From the NCBI GenBank assembly GCA_965218295.1, contig CBDCKN010000009.1, forward strand, positions 448,001-512,000: a stretch of DNA of 64,000 nucleotides. The letters are read 5' to 3'. Under the pieces are notes generated by a model. That model ran no database searches. It was not told the origin of the DNA and saw nothing but the letters and a program-made list of their open reading frames with translations. Source of the stretch: Longimicrobiales bacterium (GTDB lineage Bacteria > Gemmatimonadota > Gemmatimonadetes > Longimicrobiales > Gaopeijiaceae). This document shows, piece by piece, positions 1-7,241 of the stretch (positions within the stretch are counted from its first letter, which is position 1; every line of letters starts with the position of its first letter). Made by a program: the position numbers and the translations under genes.

Positions 1-535
1 GTTCGGTTCACGGACAACTCGTCCGCGGACCTCCGTTACGGTCCACTGGATTCCCGTCCTGTAAGAGGGATTGAATGAGGGGACGGTAGTGTGGGGATGA
101 CCCATATCTATCGTAACAATAATGACTTATGAATATCATACTGCAGCTGATGCAGGAATGGGCCGACTATCTGGACCAGCTTAGGGGCGGTGAGGAGCTG
201 GAGGCCAACGCAGCCGCGCTCTACGGCTTTGGGAAGCCCCGGGCGTTCGTCGGCTGAGATCCCTTGGAGAGGTAGATCCAGCGCCCGAAGAACTGACCCC
301 GGCCCAGCGAACACGGCAGGAGAGGAACGCGTAGGCTCAGGTGCAGAGCAGCTGCAGCGGTTTGAGTGCGAGGTGCACAGCCTTCCCGTGGGATCCGAGG
401 TTGAGCGCCGCGAACCGTGTTCGCGAGAGGCCTCGAGCGCGAGAAGCCCGGAGCAGACCGTTGCTGTATTCTGGAGAAGCGTGTCTTTTCCTAAGTTCGA
501 CCGGGCGCGTCGAAATACCATCCAGAAGGAGTACC

Positions 536-1687
536 GTGCATCACATTCGTTGGGAACTTGAAGCGCTTCGCGAGGCAGCTTTGAGCGCTGATCCGGTAAC
601 AGGTCTTACTCACGGATTCTATCGTTACCCGGCCCGATTCTCTCCTCAGCTTGCGAGAGCAGCCATCCGACTCTTTTCGGAGCCAGGCCAGTTGGTGTTG
701 GACCCGTTTTCCGGCGGGGGCACTACCGTTGTGGAGGCGGCGGCGATGGGTCGGAGAGTGGTCGGTACCGATATCAGCGAACTGGCCACTTTCCTTGCGA
801 GGTTGAAGACGGCCCGCGTTCCACCTCGCGCTGCGACTGTGCTCCGTGCCTGGGCTCAGGATACGGTTCCCCTGCTTCGTTACCGCGACCCGGTTAGCGA
901 GTCGAGCCAACCGCCCCCGGGAACCGATCGGAATCTCTGCGGGCCGGCTACGCGCGCGATCCGTAAGCTGATCGGAGTTGCTCTCTCGAGCATTCCCAAT
1001 GATCCCGATCCGACCGTGGAGACAATCGCGCGTGGGGCTATCCTGGGCACAGCGCAGTGGGCGATAGATGGGCGTCGACAAGTTGCCGAGGTGGGTGCCT
1101 ACCGCAGCCGCCTCCAAGCTACCGTCCACAAGATGCTGGATGATCTCCGACTTCTGTGGGAGCGAGGGGAAGCCGTTGGCGCCAAGACTCCGTACCTCGC
1201 TACCGCAGACGCTCTCCGCGTGGGCTCCGTGTCTCCCCTTGCGGATGGTACGGTTGTCGACCTCGTGGTAACTAGCCCTCCGTACCCTGGGATCCACGTT
1301 CTCTATCACCGCTGGCAGACCGGAGGGGGCAAGGAGACCGCCACCCCGTTTTGGATCGCAGCCGCGAGAGACGGGAAAGGGGAGTCCCACTACACGATGG
1401 GTGGCCGCCGCAGCCGCACCTACTTCGAACGGCTTGGCGTGAGAATGACGGCCATTCGGGAGGTGATGCGGGACGGCGCCTTCCTTGTTCAGGTCGTGGG
1501 TTTCTCCCGACCCGCGGTGCAGTTGAAGCTGTACTTAGAGACCATGCAGGCTAGCGGGTTCATTGAGACACCTCAGCTAGAGGGCGCCAGAATCTGGCGC
1601 GATGTGCCCGGGCGCCGGTGGTACGCGGCCCAACGCCGTGCAACGCCCGCGGCTCGAGAGGTCGTCCTGGTGCACCAAGCGGGCTAG
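536..1687 (+). CDS. Site-specific DNA methyltransferase (amino-MTase, probably N4-cytosine; motif I before motif IV)
   Basis: THGFYRYPARF, DPFSGGGT (SAM-binding motif I) and VTSPPY (catalytic motif IV). GTG at 536 is in frame with ORF 341..1687 and follows an AGAAGGAG RBS. Confidence 0.9.
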   Translation: MHHIRWELEALREAALSADPVTGLTHGFYRYPARFSPQLARAAIRLFSEPGQLVLDPFSGGGTTVVEAAAMGRRVVGTDISELATFLARLKTARVPPRAATVLRAWAQDTVPLLRYRDPVSESSQPPPGTDRNLCGPATRAIRKLIGVALSSIPNDPDPTVETIARGAILGTAQWAIDGRRQVAEVGAYRSRLQATVHKMLDDLRLLWERGEAVGAKTPYLATADALRVGSVSPLADGTVVDLVVTSPPYPGIHVLYHRWQTGGGKETATPFWIAAARDGKGESHYTMGGRRSRTYFERLGVRMTAIREVMRDGAFLVQVVGFSRPAVQLKLYLETMQASGFIETPQLEGARIWRDVPGRRWYAAQRRATPAAREVVLVHQAG

Positions 1688-1691
1688 GCTC

Positions 1692-4211
1692 CTAGTCATC
1701 GTCGCCGACCCCACCCGCTGAGACCTCGTCGGGGCTTAGGGAACCGAGGAAGTCGATCATCGGAAGAAGGAAGGGGGCCAACGCCCTCGTGGTGGAAGCC
1801 ACACGATCTTCCGGCGACTCAGTCGGTTCGGTCCCGTTCTCGTGGTTCGTGCGTGAATCGTTCAGGAGTCCGAGTCCCAGAAGCACATTGGCGAACACGA
1901 ACTTCGCCTCGGCGACCATCGGGTCCTCGCGGCTACTCTTCAGGTCTGTCTCGAAGGACCTGTTAGATGTGTTCACGTAGAACGTTAGCTCGGAGCCGTT
2001 CTCCGGATGCCCGGGGTCGGAGTCATCTACCACCTTACATCCTGTGAAGTGGTCGAATTGGTGGTCTTGCCAGAGCTGGTCGCCCTCCTTCACTAGATGG
2101 ATCTGCGGCAACTGGATCCCTGCGTCCTTGTTCTTCCCCTTCCCACCGTGCCCCCCGCCGCTTTTCGTCGGATCGTTCAAATCGCGCCGCCTATCACGCT
2201 TGCCCTTTCCAGGCTTCCGCTGAGTTGTCGGCAATACGGTAATCACAGCGATCTTCACGAAGGGCTCGATCAGGGTATCGTCCGTAACTGTGCACTGGAC
2301 CGTCAGCTCGTCACCGACGTCAAGTTCGTCGGGGAGGCTGATGCTCCAGTTGGCCACTCCATCGTACAGAACGAGGTTATGCGATAGATCGAGTCCCTCC
2401 ACGGGGCCGTCAAGCACCTCGACGTAGTAGTGACCGGGAACCGACGCCCGCTTGAAATAGTCATTCACCACGTCTGTTTCGAACTTGATCCGACATCTCC
2501 GCCCAGTCTCCGCCGATCGGTGGATTGAGTCGGCCTCGGGCGTCCTCACGAAACGAAAGAAGGTAGGATGGGGCTTCCCCACGAACCCCCCGCCCAGGCC
2601 CGTCCCACTCGCAGATCCGCCTTCCTCGCCCGCTCGATGGGGCCGGTTCAGCCGTTGTCCCTGGAGGAACAGCCGGTTGAGGCTAGGAGAGGTCCGCAAG
2701 ATTGTTCCGAGTACATCCTCCAACGGCTTGGAGTCTTCGAGTCTCTGGGCGATCTCGTTCGCCCTACGGCGTTCACGAAGCTCCTTGAGGCCGTGATGGC
2801 GTCCGATCAGGTCCTCCAGCTCCTCTTCGATTGCCTTCCGGAGCTCTCCATTGCTCAACCGGTCGCGGCTGTTCATGAAGAGGTCCTCGCGCGCGTCTAC
2901 CGACAATCGCGAGCAGTCGACAGCTATTAACAGTGAGTCGCCCAGCCGTCCCATTTTCACTTTTTTCCGGCTGAAGAAGGTCTTCGACAACGCCGCATGA
3001 GTTTGGCCAGTGATCGTGAAGATGATGCCCTCGGTTGAGCGGTACGTGTCTGCCTTTCCGGATTTGAACGCGTAGATCTCGACCGTGAGATCCTCCCCGG
3101 CAACCCGAGCCGACGCCGACGTAGGGAAGCCCTCTTCGAGGTTCTGGCCCCGATTGGCTTCCAGCCGCGCAGAGAGGCCAACCAACGTCGTCTCAAAGCT
3201 CCTCGCCGCCTCACCTCGGTAGGCCCGACACTCATGGACCCGAACGGGCAGCGCAATGCCTGGGAGCATGAGTTCGAGTCGACCTAAGAGCCCGGCCTTC
3301 ATGAACGCGTGGCTGCCGAATCCCTTCATGTCGTACTCATAGAGCTTCAGCACTGAACCCCAATCGAGCGGCCGGGCGTAGGGGATGTTCTTGTCGGGGA
3401 GAGCATCGATACTTGGCGCTGAGAAGTGCAGCACCTCGCCACCGTTCGAGCTCTCTTCAGCTCCCGCCGACGCTAGGTAACGGTAGACCGAATTGCGGAC
3501 TTCCCCGGCCCCATGGGTCGGACGTACTCGTCGGACGACGGTGAACCCCCAGGCAGCCTCTGGTCCGCTCATGCCCCCGGAGATCTCAGGACATCTCCGA
3601 CTAATGATCAGCTGAAGACCCTCGCGGCCGCAGAACTTGAGGGCGCCGGTTCCACCCATGTTGAACTTCCCCTGAACGAACGGGATCCGCAGCTTGTTCT
3701 CGCGGTCGATCGATAGGAACGTATCCGGCATCTTTGCCGGTGTTTGTCCCTCCCCGAGGTCCACGATCGTGATCGAGGTGCCCCCCTCCTGCTTGGGCTT
3801 CGATCCCGTGACAGCGAGGGTGATACTGCGGGACTGTTCGAGCTGCCTCTTGGGAGACCAGAACCGGAGGTCTCCGGCTTCCTCACCGAGCGGCTCGACG
3901 CCCTCGATGAACGTCGCGACCGCCTCCCGCACCGACTGAGGCGCCTCGGCCGAACTCGGGTCGATGCCCCTCTCGAGGCACTCTTTCATCAACCGGGCGT
4001 CCACGGAGTTGACGATCTTTTCGACGAGAGCGGCCTCCGGTCGGCTCTGCTGATTCCCGATCACCGAGAAGTTCCCGTCGCGGTCCCCGTAGAGCCGCCA
4101 GTTCTTGGGATTGTCCCACAGGTCATGCTTCCGGAGGATCGCAATCACATCTGATTCTGAGTCTGCGTGGAGAAGTGAGAGCGCGAGCGCGTGTTTCGTG
4201 TCGTTAGTCAT
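1692..4211 (-). CDS. GHKL (Hsp90/MORC-like) ATPase domain protein, 839 aa
   Basis: GHKL motifs near the N-terminus: EKIVNSVDA (N box), DLGEG (G1), GKFNMGG (G2). Long uncharacterised C-terminal part. Start overlaps the stop of the upstream gene. Confidence 0.8.
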   Translation of the reverse strand: MTNDTKHALALSLLHADSESDVIAILRKHDLWDNPKNWRLYGDRDGNFSVIGNQQSRPEAALVEKIVNSVDARLMKECLERGIDPSSAEAPQSVREAVATFIEGVEPLGEEAGDLRFWSPKRQLEQSRSITLAVTGSKPKQEGGTSITIVDLGEGQTPAKMPDTFLSIDRENKLRIPFVQGKFNMGGTGALKFCGREGLQLIISRRCPEISGGMSGPEAAWGFTVVRRVRPTHGAGEVRNSVYRYLASAGAEESSNGGEVLHFSAPSIDALPDKNIPYARPLDWGSVLKLYEYDMKGFGSHAFMKAGLLGRLELMLPGIALPVRVHECRAYRGEAARSFETTLVGLSARLEANRGQNLEEGFPTSASARVAGEDLTVEIYAFKSGKADTYRSTEGIIFTITGQTHAALSKTFFSRKKVKMGRLGDSLLIAVDCSRLSVDAREDLFMNSRDRLSNGELRKAIEEELEDLIGRHHGLKELRERRRANEIAQRLEDSKPLEDVLGTILRTSPSLNRLFLQGQRLNRPHRAGEEGGSASGTGLGGGFVGKPHPTFFRFVRTPEADSIHRSAETGRRCRIKFETDVVNDYFKRASVPGHYYVEVLDGPVEGLDLSHNLVLYDGVANWSISLPDELDVGDELTVQCTVTDDTLIEPFVKIAVITVLPTTQRKPGKGKRDRRRDLNDPTKSGGGHGGKGKNKDAGIQLPQIHLVKEGDQLWQDHQFDHFTGCKVVDDSDPGHPENGSELTFYVNTSNRSFETDLKSSREDPMVAEAKFVFANVLLGLGLLNDSRTNHENGTEPTESPEDRVASTTRALAPFLLPMIDFLGSLSPDEVSAGGVGDDD

Positions 4212-4848
4212 CGATCAATGCTCCTTCCGAGGCTGGATCCCCACCCAGCTGGGCCCAATGTTCCTTCACGGCGGCAACGGTTAGACGCTCAGGAATGGGG
4301 ACATAGCCTCCGCGCCCTACCTTCTCCACCGCTTTGCAGGCTCGCAGCCAGGCCACCACTAGATAGACCTGATAGGAGGGGACCTCCGTTCCGTCTTCGT
4401 CGCGAACCGGAGTCAGTGCGTCCATCGAGAACTCACTCGACCCCAACCTCTGAAGAGCAGACACTACGGCCGACACCGCGAACGTCAGCGCCCGATGCTC
4501 GTATTCGGTACGGTCCCTCCTTGACCACCCGATCTTCACTAGTCGGTCGCCATCACGAACGAACTTCGGGTAAGTCTCCGCCCGCCCGCCCCGACCGTTA
4601 TCCGCCGGCCGCCCTCGGATCGAGTCGTCCGCTTCGGAATGCGTCACAGCCTTGGCTCGGACAGTGCCTCTCGCGGGCGCCCTCTCGTCCCCGCCCATGG
4701 ATTGGATCAGTTCCTGAACTTGCTGTGAAACTGAGGCTAGCTCGGCCACATCAGAGTATTCCCGGTCCTTCAGCGCCTTCTGAAGTCGCGAGGTGAGCTG
4801 GTCTTCAGCCCGCGTAAGCACGCCTACGATATCATCTCGTATCGCCAC
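4204..4848 (-). CDS. Hypothetical protein, possible C-terminal winged-helix DNA-binding domain
   Basis: GTG at 4848 follows a GGGAGG RBS and is in frame with ORF 4204..4923. Overlaps the ATPase start by 8 bp. The C-terminus (QVYLVVAWL..VEKVGRGGY) looks like helix plus wing (inference). Confidence 0.65.
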   Translation of the reverse strand: MAIRDDIVGVLTRAEDQLTSRLQKALKDREYSDVAELASVSQQVQELIQSMGGDERAPARGTVRAKAVTHSEADDSIRGRPADNGRGGRAETYPKFVRDGDRLVKIGWSRRDRTEYEHRALTFAVSAVVSALQRLGSSEFSMDALTPVRDEDGTEVPSYQVYLVVAWLRACKAVEKVGRGGYVPIPERLTVAAVKEHWAQLGGDPASEGALIDD

Positions 4849-5241: not shown

Positions 5242-5306
5242 ACCCCTTCTGCCCACCAGGCGAAGCGGTCTCACGTAACGCTATATATCACACCGCTTTA
5301 CCTCAG

Positions 5307-5379
5307 TGGAGCCAGCCGGGATCGAACCGGCGACCTCTGGCTTGCAAAGCCAGCGCTCTCCCAACTGAGCTATGGCCCC
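5307..5379 (-). tRNA. tRNA-Ala (UGC)
   Basis: Reverse complement GGGGCCATAGCTCAGTTGGGAGAGCGCTGGCTTTGCAAGCCAGAGGTCGCCGGTTCGATCCCGGCTGGCTCCA. Anticodon TGC, TTCGA T-loop, G3:U70 pair. CCA tail not encoded. Confidence 0.97.
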
Positions 5380-5863
5380 TCTTCGCGATCGGTGTCGTCC
5401 GGAGAGCTCGACTTGACGAGCCTCCGCTGGAAAGCCGCACAAAGATAGTTCAGAAGGCTTCCCGCTCAACCTTCCGAGGAGATCGTCATTTTGAAGCCGT
5501 CCGGGTCCACCAGGCTGAAGGCTCGCCCACCCCAGGGCATGTCGGCGGGTGGGGACTCCAGCGTGCCGCCCCGCTCCTCGATCCCAGCCGCGATCTCGTC
5601 CACGTCGCCGGCCGTGGCGAGGTGGAGCCGGAACCCCTCACCCTTCCCACGGTCGCGGCCCTTGGCCCAATCGTCCTGTCCAAGGAAGAGGTGGGCCGCT
5701 CCAGCCACGAGAGAGGCGCCCCCTAACTTGCCTTCGTGCTCCCAGGTCTCCTTCACATAGAAGCCCACCACGTCCCGATACCATGCGACGCTCGCGTCGA
5801 TGTCTCCGACCGTCAACGCAGGCGAGATGCTGCTAAGGCGAAGAGTGTCAGGGGTGCTGTGAT

Positions 5864-7241
5864 GAGCTAGGATCAAAGGGTGTGTAAAAAGAGAGGCGAC
5901 GTACCTTTCCGCTGAGTAATAACCAGCGAACTCCGGGTGACAGCCCGGGGGAAAGGAACGACGCCTCGTGAGGAAGAATACGGTGGGACCCGAGGGTGAG
6001 TCCAGGACGCCCGTGTGGGAAGTTCTGGAAGAAGTGGTTCGGGAGAAGGCGCAGGAGTTCATTCAACAGATCTTGGAGGAGGAAGTCACGGAGTTGCTAG
6101 GGCGAGAGAAGTCAGAGCGCAGGAGGGTGGTGGACGCGACCGAGGGCTACCGCAACGGATACGGCAAGCCGAGGCGGCTGGCGATGAGCTCGGGCACGAT
6201 CACACTCCGACGCCCTCGAGTTCGAGGCCTTGAGGAGCGGTTCGAGAGCCGCGTGCTGCCGTTGTTCGCGAGGCGGACGAAGGAGCTGGGCGCTCTGCTT
6301 CCGGAGCTGTATCTGCACGGACTGGCGGAGGGAGACTTCGAGTTGGCGATGCGGGGCCTGCTGGGCGAGGGGGCACCGCTGTCGAAGTCTTCGATTCGGC
6401 GGCTGCGGGCGGGATGGACGGCGGAGTTCGAGGAATGGAGCCAGCGTCGCCTGGAGGGTCGTGAGGTCGTCTACGTGTGGGCGGACGGGATCTATGTGAA
6501 GGCAGGGCTGGAGCGGGACAAAGCGGCGCTGCTGGTGGTGCTGGGTGCCATGCGAGACGGGACGAAAGAGGTGTTGGCCCTGAGAGCGGGCTACCGAGAG
6601 TCGGTCGAGTCCTGGTCCGAGGTGTTGCGGGACCTGAAGGCACGCGGCATCGAGGCGCCCCGGCTTCTGATGGCGGACGGTAACGCTGCGATCTGGGGCG
6701 CAGTACGGCAGGTATGGCCTGAGGCGGGTGAGCAACGGTGCTGGAACCACAAGATGAGGAACGTGCTGGACCGACTACCTCAGCGGGAGCAGGGCGAGGC
6801 GAAGGATCTTCTCCGGGCCGTGGTCTACGCACCGAGCCGGGCCGAGGCCCTGAAGGCCCGCGAGGTGTTCGCCCGACGCTATAGGCCGTGGTATCCGAAA
6901 GCAGTGGACGTACTCGAGGACGACTGGGAGCGGATGGTAGCGTTCTACGACTTCCCCGAGGACCACTGGAAGCATCTACGCACGACGAACGTGGTCGAGA
7001 GCCCGTTCGCCGCGGTACGGCTCAGGACGACAGCAGCGAAGCGGTTCAAGCGGGTCGAGAGCGCTACGGCGCTAATCTGGAAGTTGCTCTTGGTGGCTGA
7101 GAAGCGGTTCCGAAGGCTCGACGCTCCTCACCTCCTCAAGGACGTATTTGAAGGAAGAAAGTTCGAAGACGGAAAGCCCGTCTCACACCAACAGCGGAAG
7201 AACGCCGCCTAATACGTTTACACACCTATTGACCCAACCTC
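5864..7241 (+). mobile_element. IS256-family element type a, copy 1 (1378 bp)
   Basis: Imperfect TIRs GAGCTAGGATCAAAGGGTGTGTAAA / GAGGTTGGGTCAATAGGTGTGTAAA; 8-bp TSD GCTGTGAT (5856-5863, 7242-7249). Confidence 0.95.
5968..7212 (+). CDS. IS256 family (Mutator-type DDE) transposase
   Basis: YRNGY, WADGIY, ADG, QRCWNHK and RTTNVVES motifs. Confidence 0.95.
   Translation: MRKNTVGPEGESRTPVWEVLEEVVREKAQEFIQQILEEEVTELLGREKSERRRVVDATEGYRNGYGKPRRLAMSSGTITLRRPRVRGLEERFESRVLPLFARRTKELGALLPELYLHGLAEGDFELAMRGLLGEGAPLSKSSIRRLRAGWTAEFEEWSQRRLEGREVVYVWADGIYVKAGLERDKAALLVVLGAMRDGTKEVLALRAGYRESVESWSEVLRDLKARGIEAPRLLMADGNAAIWGAVRQVWPEAGEQRCWNHKMRNVLDRLPQREQGEAKDLLRAVVYAPSRAEALKAREVFARRYRPWYPKAVDVLEDDWERMVAFYDFPEDHWKHLRTTNVVESPFAAVRLRTTAAKRFKRVESATALIWKLLLVAEKRFRRLDAPHLLKDVFEGRKFEDGKPVSHQQRKNAA

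Follow-up and report, generated by a model that had tools for sequence, protein, structure and literature searches.

A widespread, unnamed two-gene module pairing a GHKL ATPase with a DNA methyltransferase, and its predicted role in restriction-like defence

Here, we describe a two-gene unit from a Longimicrobiales bacterium (assembly GCA_965218295.1), in which a GHKL ATPase of an unnamed family and a DNA methyltransferase are encoded tail-to-tail. It lies in a stretch of 64,000 nucleotides (contig CBDCKN010000009.1, positions 448,001 to 512,000 of the forward strand; hereafter the window). The module is real, widespread and unnamed, and its function is predicted: with moderate confidence, we propose a restriction-modification (RM)-like defence in which the restricting part would be an ATP-gated clamp and not a nuclease. 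In the window, the two genes and the gene upstream of the ATPase are arranged as follows:

536-1687, plus strand: DNA methyltransferase, 383 amino acids (aa); start codon GTG, with AGGAG upstream; predicted to write the self mark
1692-4211, minus strand: GHKL ATPase of an unnamed family, 839 aa; predicted restricting clamp
4204-4848, minus strand: predicted coiled-coil/winged-helix protein, 214 aa; one of several interchangeable upstream genes

All three reading frames are open and each is preceded by a ribosome-binding-like sequence. The methyltransferase and ATPase genes have their stop codons 4 bp from each other, the 214-aa gene overlaps the start of the ATPase gene by 8 bp, and the 3' end of a tRNA-Ala gene follows ~460 bp from the 214-aa gene, in keeping with the initial annotation of this stretch. 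Each of the three genes is single-copy in the genome, and the GC content of the region is 0.61-0.63, compared with 0.65 for the genome.

The ATPase and the methyltransferase form a conserved pair

Is the tail-to-tail pair a common arrangement? A scan of GTDB returned 469 relatives of the ATPase, the best 80 of which were kept as a locus set (loci and genomes are given below by L and G numbers), and for a reverse set the methyltransferase was searched in metagenomes, where the best 80 of at least 502 matches were kept. Being best hits, both sets are biased to close relatives and their members are not independent. The cognate methyltransferase family is found beside the ATPase in 71 of the 80 genome loci, one of these copies being a fragment where the contig ends. 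Among the nine misses, six contigs end in or just past the ATPase, one locus is broken by an insertion sequence (IS) on a short contig, and in two (L028 and L089) the ATPase is truly alone. The pairs are tail-to-tail in 64 of 69 cases (two duplicate loci left out), with a gap of at most 65 bp in 62. In the reverse direction, an ATPase of the family lies beside the methyltransferase in 70 of the 80 metagenome loci; in nine of the ten misses the contig ends within 480 bp downstream, and the tenth starts within a gene of the upstream type, as judged by eye. In even draws of genomes, seeds included, the ATPase was present in 5 of 401, 4 of 401, 11 of 331, 4 of 281 and 6 of 281, i.e. in ~1-3%, and its spread is patchy, over many phyla. 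A pairing in 71 of 80 loci greatly exceeds what chance would give for a gene this rare. In related loci, housekeeping genes often stand on both sides of the module.

The conserved unit is thus the pair of ATPase and methyltransferase. The initial annotation had proposed either an RM-like module of all three genes, with an unrecognised effector in the C-terminal region of the ATPase, or part of a larger system continuing to the left of the window. What stood of this proposal is a conserved, RM-like, methylation-linked unit. The trio did not hold, since the 214-aa gene occurs in just 29 of the 80 loci, and elsewhere at least six unrelated genes take its place. To the left of the window lies an IS-shredded island, whose genes do not recur beside the 80 related loci, and the module therefore does not continue leftwards. 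No nuclease family recurred either in a clustering of all neighbours of the 80 loci or in a Pfam scan of 80 of the 262 flanking open reading frames (ORFs), and no helicase, HNH or TIR cluster was found among these neighbours.

A GHKL ATPase with a predicted clamp architecture

The ATPase gave no match in Pfam, PADLOC, NCBIfam or PDB sequences, and in the ESM Atlas it fell solely among unnamed clusters, some of which carry minority HATPase_c_3 or immunoglobulin (Ig) labels. The family is large, with thousands of homologues: 3553 of 7997 candidates scored reached E <= 0.001, with 681 representatives at E <= 1e-30. Despite the missing database matches, its initial assignment as a GHKL protein holds by motifs and model. 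Indeed, all of 142 homologues keep E64/N68/D71, D151-x-G-x-G and G181/G186, and the GHKL signature residues E64, N68, D71, D151, G155, G181, G186 and G285 are invariant or nearly so. A structural model built from the 142 sequences (predicted local distance difference test score, pLDDT, 89; predicted template modelling score 0.90) retrieved topoisomerase VI-B as the top Foldseek match, together with Hsp90 and GyrB, at E ~1e-9; small Ig-like viral proteins followed at E ~1e-3. From the secondary structure of this model, we predict the following architecture (ATPase residues):

~1-330: GHKL domain
~360-470: S5 transducer domain, with the invariant R449
~456-514: stalk helices
~550-660: Ig-like domain, a beta-sandwich in the model
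~700-830: alpha/beta-helical tail, mostly hydrophobic

The basic residue of the S5 domain, R449 in an FMNSRD motif, is present in 23 of 23 distant and essentially all of 108 near sequences; we take it to be the equivalent of the Hsp90 arginine. A YVN motif in the tail presumably resembles the beginning of the domain by which Hsp90 dimerises. Across 131 family members, clades below 30% identity included, the GHKL motifs, the N-G-Q and R449 of the S5 domain, P549, T579-D580, R588, G618, G633 and P702 are kept. The only near-invariant charged residues of the C-terminal half are R449, D580 and R588, with D432 less so, and no histidine is conserved beyond residue 520. No conserved E-D-ExK, HNH or HxH cluster was found in the C-terminal half of these 131 members, a search that a novel active site would escape. 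Neither partner carries a recognisable nuclease motif by Pfam, PADLOC or residue conservation, in agreement with what had first been noted from the sequence.

The ATPase also occurs in a natural split form, in which the GHKL part (~360 aa) and the S5-Ig-tail part (~610 aa) are separate genes. An alignment of 15 of the split-form C-terminal halves matched ATPase residues 389-766 with an hhalign probability of 99% and gave no Pfam domain. At one locus (L139:7145-12720), a full-length and a split family member stand in tandem and share one methyltransferase. A complex prediction for ATPase residues 25-660 and methyltransferase residues 20-382 scored 0.00, which is evidence neither for nor against an interaction.

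A dedicated amino-methyltransferase

The methyltransferase matches Pfam N6_N4_Mtase (1.6e-17), and a PADLOC MTase_II match spans its N-terminal part only. Its motif I (DPFSGGGTT, residues 56-64) precedes the SPPY motif (TSPPY, residues 246-250), which is the alpha order. In 62-70 homologues, motif I, SPPY, the loops following SPPY and a C-terminal RxVPxRxWY are invariant or nearly so. We predict from these features an amino-methyltransferase of the N4-cytosine or N6-adenine type that belongs to a dedicated subfamily. As a rule of thumb, SPPY indicates N4-methylcytosine (m4C), and the mark may accordingly be m4C and not N6-methyladenine; the best PDB matches are to an N4 enzyme and cover motif I only. 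The median identity of the methyltransferases is still 42% where the paired ATPases are less than 30% identical. This steady conservation suggests a common target motif; an analysis of palindrome avoidance yielded no usable target motif.

Phages are known to carry methyltransferases to evade restriction. On viral contigs, 9 of 16 methyltransferase matches are family-level: six are accompanied by the ATPase, one lies at a contig end and two are intact and alone. The latter two (L107:3091-4527 and L110:4009-5181) have intact motifs and no ATPase, and stand on contigs whose phage genes were recognised by eye. They are possibly an anti-restriction capture. Among 50,697 annotated phage records, none matched the ATPase, and a viral scan with its Devosia relative found nothing.

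An upstream slot with interchangeable genes

The 214-aa protein has no family match in Pfam, PADLOC, NCBIfam or PDB sequences. Its model (pLDDT 80) shows an N-terminal helical hairpin, a disordered linker and a C-terminal beta-sheet with a predicted winged helix. The Foldseek rows are winged-helix proteins, none of them reaching E 0.001, and a VIA structure search was filled by generic helical hairpins. A likeness of its KIGWS to GIY-YIG proteins was dropped, because in the model a strand and not the Arg helix comes after this motif.

In the 80 ATPase loci, genes of this coil-winged-helix type occupy the slot 29 times, a 390-aa family and an 80-aa basic protein 13 times each, an AbrB+PIN pair seven times, and a HARE-HTH protein and a 132-aa protein four times each; in other locus sets, a DndB-family protein is found there. 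The 390-aa family (e.g. L068:8814-9989) has, by eye, a ribbon-helix-helix-like start and a winged-helix-like end, and the 80-aa family (e.g. L075:9672-9917) is basic and helical; neither matches Pfam, NCBIfam or PADLOC. Common ancestry of the coil-winged-helix, 390-aa and 80-aa families was not detectable (hhalign 2% and 0.1%). Since the labelled occupants are of DNA-binding or regulatory types, the slot appears to be regulatory, and the product of the upstream gene likely autoregulates the operon that it forms with the ATPase.

Distant relatives are paired with other DNA marks

From the even draws of genomes, we took the context of 24 ATPase hits, leaving out the genome of origin and three seeds. 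A DNA-marking gene adjoins the ATPase in 16 of them: 11 are cognate methyltransferases, two are beta-class enzymes (one fused to the ATPase, one convergent with it) and three are Dcm+Vsr, where the ATPase is flanked by the two in two loci and stands next to them in the third. The remaining eight comprise one locus in which both genes are decayed, two cut by contig ends and five with no adjacent marking gene. These five comprise three broken or truncated ATPases, a shortened one and an intact one; of the 16 partnered copies, one is visibly interrupted.

The phosphorothioation genes sspBCD were adjacent in none of the 24 contexts. They lie beside the ATPase in three of five plasmid loci inspected (of seven hits) and on one viral contig, where the stops of the ATPase and sspD genes overlap tail-to-tail. 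In an ATPase tree (FastTree, midpoint-rooted, built without the split and short copies), the Ssp-linked ATPases fall in two separate places, and the L099 ATPase is the sister of a clade with DndB-regulated methyltransferases (support 0.95). Two alphaproteobacterial plasmid loci (L092:10494-14996 and L093:3276-7651) additionally hold a HEF_HK paraMORC-like gene and an unannotated gene of 635-680 aa between or beside sspBCD and the ATPase. In another genome (G133; L008/L252), a shortened lone ATPase has no methyltransferase, and a locus with sspBCD and a DndB-like gene lies 586 kb away.

Relation to known systems

In type II RM systems with a controller, an operon of controller and endonuclease genes converges on the methyltransferase gene. 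The present module is similar, in that an operon of regulator and effector converges on a separate methyltransferase with intact motifs, and in that methyltransferase-only phages exist. Unlike in type II RM, there is no recognisable endonuclease, and an 839-aa GHKL ATPase takes the effector slot. BREX blocks replication without obvious cleavage. With BREX and DISARM, the module shares ATPase partners and, as predicted, self marking by a methyltransferase; it differs in having two genes instead of five or more, in having no PADLOC BREX or DISARM match and in its ATPase, which is GHKL and not P-loop.

The closest likeness is to the prokaryotic MORC and paraMORC1-5 ATPases that Iyer, Abhiman and Aravind placed in predicted RM operons in 2008 (PMC2292703). 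Shared are the GHKL and S5 domains with intact motifs, the sporadic spread and the links to DNA methylases and Vsr. ParaMORC1, described there with a C-terminal extension and as occurring beside MORC genes or an HNH nuclease, resembles our ATPase in its intact motifs and conserved C-terminal extension beyond S5, as far as a comparison by description only can tell. A MORC-like gene stands upstream of a family ATPase in only two (L009 and L099) of ~200 loci examined; in the former (L009:2-4615), one operon encodes the MORC-like protein, a distant family ATPase and a 125-aa ORF that looks GIY-YIG-like by eye and has no Pfam match.

Several features set the ATPase apart from MORC proper and paraMORC2-5. 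Unlike MORC proper, it has no GhXhhpXXRhl motif; the corresponding strand reads G395-IIFTITGQTH, with a family-invariant N-G-Q and no Arg. MORC operons have a superfamily II helicase nearby in ~70% of cases (PMC2292703), and no such helicase cluster lies beside the 80 loci. ParaMORC2 is marked by an ExxxH at the end of S5, whereas E466 and H472 of the ATPase are six apart and lost in distant clades. The E-D-ExK residues of the C-terminal nuclease domain of paraMORC3 are absent, as is any Pfam or PADLOC match to it. ParaMORC4 has a fused or adjacent TIR domain, in place of which our model has a beta-sandwich and a helical tail, with no TIR neighbours. The C-terminal HxH of paraMORC5 has no counterpart in the ATPase, which has no conserved histidine past residue 520. 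Further differences are that the family has an Ig-like domain and that its main partner is one dedicated amino-methyltransferase subfamily, encoded tail-to-tail. We therefore regard the module, on its sequence features, as a probable unnamed variant of the predicted MORC/paraMORC class.

Tiamat is an anti-phage GHL ATPase of clamp architecture that is often near methyltransferases (bioRxiv 10.64898/2026.09.30.754977). According to the same source, it has DUF3684 and a PD-(D/E)xK (DUF3883) nuclease, and methyltransferases neighbour it only together with a helicase; our module differs in having no DUF3684, no DUF3883 nuclease (no Pfam or PADLOC match) and no helicase. The adjacency of distant ATPase relatives to sspBCD recalls SspABCD-SspFGH and SspABCD-SspE. 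An identity of these ATPases with SspFGH was rejected: SspFGH is described as Walker-A and FtsK-like (PMC8092258) and is not GHKL, and no PADLOC model matches the ATPases. We found no published description of the ATPase-methyltransferase pair in a search that covered neither the supplement of PMC2292703 nor most subscription papers; the accessible parts of PMC8011034 and PMC7824862 do not describe it.

Proposed mechanism and alternative explanations

How could such a unit exclude foreign DNA? We propose that the methyltransferase would mark a motif of the host DNA as self, and that an ATPase dimer would close on unmarked incoming DNA in its ATP cycle. The closed clamp would then block replication or transcription of the foreign DNA, or arrest the cell. 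DNA binding and dimerisation of the ATPase are suggested by analogy with MORC, MutL and Hsp90, and the proposal implies that the ATPase would sense the mark and act against phages. In convergent type II systems, controller proteins delay expression of the effector; the upstream DNA-binding protein may likewise temper or delay ATPase expression on entry into a new host. It is possible, if on balance doubtful, that one clamp family restricts without cutting throughout and has changed partners between chemically different self marks, namely amino-methylation of the alpha and beta classes, 5-methylcytosine and phosphorothioate.

Several observations weigh against a non-cutting clamp that reads its partner's mark. 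Distances among the ATPases and among their methyltransferases show a weak correlation only (Spearman 0.18 against a permutation maximum of 0.13; 0.08 where the ATPases are below 60% identity). The Ssp link may reflect island clustering, as just four loci show it and three of these hold other candidate effectors (DUF262/SIR2 or the HEF_HK paraMORC-like gene). Intact lone ATPases exist, which argues against strict toxicity without the mark: for two of them (L089 and G969), no full cognate methyltransferase was found in their incomplete genomes, and three loci (L094, L095 and L102) have no marking gene near the ATPase, among them a lone intact distant ATPase (L102:7980-10400) on a viral contig of 597 kb.

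Among the alternatives, restriction by DNA cutting is unlikely but the most probable. The active site could lie unrecognised in the Ig-like or tail domain, or a host nuclease could be recruited as MutL recruits MutH or Vsr. Other MORC/paraMORC proteins (PMC2292703) and Tiamat use fused or partner nucleases, the T579-D580...R588 motif is near-invariant, and the partner of topoisomerase VI-B, the top structural match, cuts DNA. However, the C-terminal half shows no cluster of conserved acidic residues or histidines over the 131 sequences, its tail is mostly hydrophobic and no nuclease recurs as a neighbour; a mobile module found over many phyla would also hardly depend on one host nuclease. A further idea places the genes at the right edge of a larger system, with its nuclease to the left of position 1; it starts from a Vsr fragment and a broken PD-(D/E)xK-like gene (by eye) up to 8 kb away on that side. 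It is very improbable and largely refuted, as those genes are IS-disrupted and do not recur beside the 80 related loci.

The ATPase could instead be a helper of marking enzymes (a loader, a chaperone or a mark-directed repair factor) with no part in restriction, the module then being an epigenetic or protective methylation cassette. Such a role would suit an Hsp90-like protein that accompanies several kinds of writer, is fused to one, recalls MutL-Vsr by its placement at Dcm/Vsr in three loci and has intact lone copies. We nevertheless consider it quite improbable: the two genes are on opposite strands, a separate regulator precedes only the ATPase, two phages have the methyltransferase without the ATPase, and a single chaperone for four unrelated writers seems implausible. 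A low probability is also given to a selfish addiction module, in which the ATPase would poison cells that lose methylation and thereby stabilise the island, with little effect on phages. The minimal two-gene layout, the AbrB-PIN toxin-antitoxin pair in the upstream slot of seven of the 80 loci and the frequent breakage of lone ATPases fit this idea, which is compatible with the proposed clamp; on the other side, the lone phage methyltransferases suggest a pressure on phages.

If the clamp mechanism is true, the module would be a nuclease-free restriction system of two genes, simple enough for cloning and reconstitution. It would show how an ATP clamp alone excludes foreign DNA, and the reading of DNA marks by prokaryotic MORC-like ATPases, as predicted in 2008, could be tested on it directly. 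If the clamp is also exchanged between marks, Ssp phosphorothioation would gain a third type of effector, and bacteria would possess a minimal equivalent of the DNA-entrapment silencing of the MORC type. Such an exchange of methylation for phosphorothioation partners would also be informative on how sensors tell marks apart. The family is invisible to the copies of Pfam, NCBIfam and PADLOC searched, and thus absent from such defence inventories.

Flanking island and tRNA

On the side of the upstream gene, the module is followed by a tRNA gene, which lies outside it and is given as context:

5306-5379, minus strand: tRNA-Ala(TGC), island border

A role of tRNA integration as a trait of the family was rejected, with a tRNA near just 4 of 43 related loci that have enough flank, and no duplicated tRNA-Ala 3' end, as expected of an attachment-site duplication, was found in the genome. 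A promoter and terminator scan of the locus gave a result at chance level. In sequencing runs, the stretch or part of it appears in 20 of 24 rows (11 studies), with a share of 0.06 in the sole RNA run.

The left flank of ~10 kb up to tRNA-Ile(GAT) (L001:7975-18000, i.e. contig C9 437975-448000) is IS-rich and holds several IS families, the Vsr fragment and an IS-split helical protein. The last piece of the latter (C9 446461-447726) ends in the PD-(D/E)xK-like motif seen by eye and has no PADLOC match at 1e-12. An IS256/Mutator-family element at window positions 5863-7241 has a near-identical copy 7 kb left of the window; as the element has dozens of such copies in the genome, their presence on both sides is not special. 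At window positions 18-205, we also observed short repeats of ~50-65 bp, diverged copies of which are present on contigs C12, C13 and C15.

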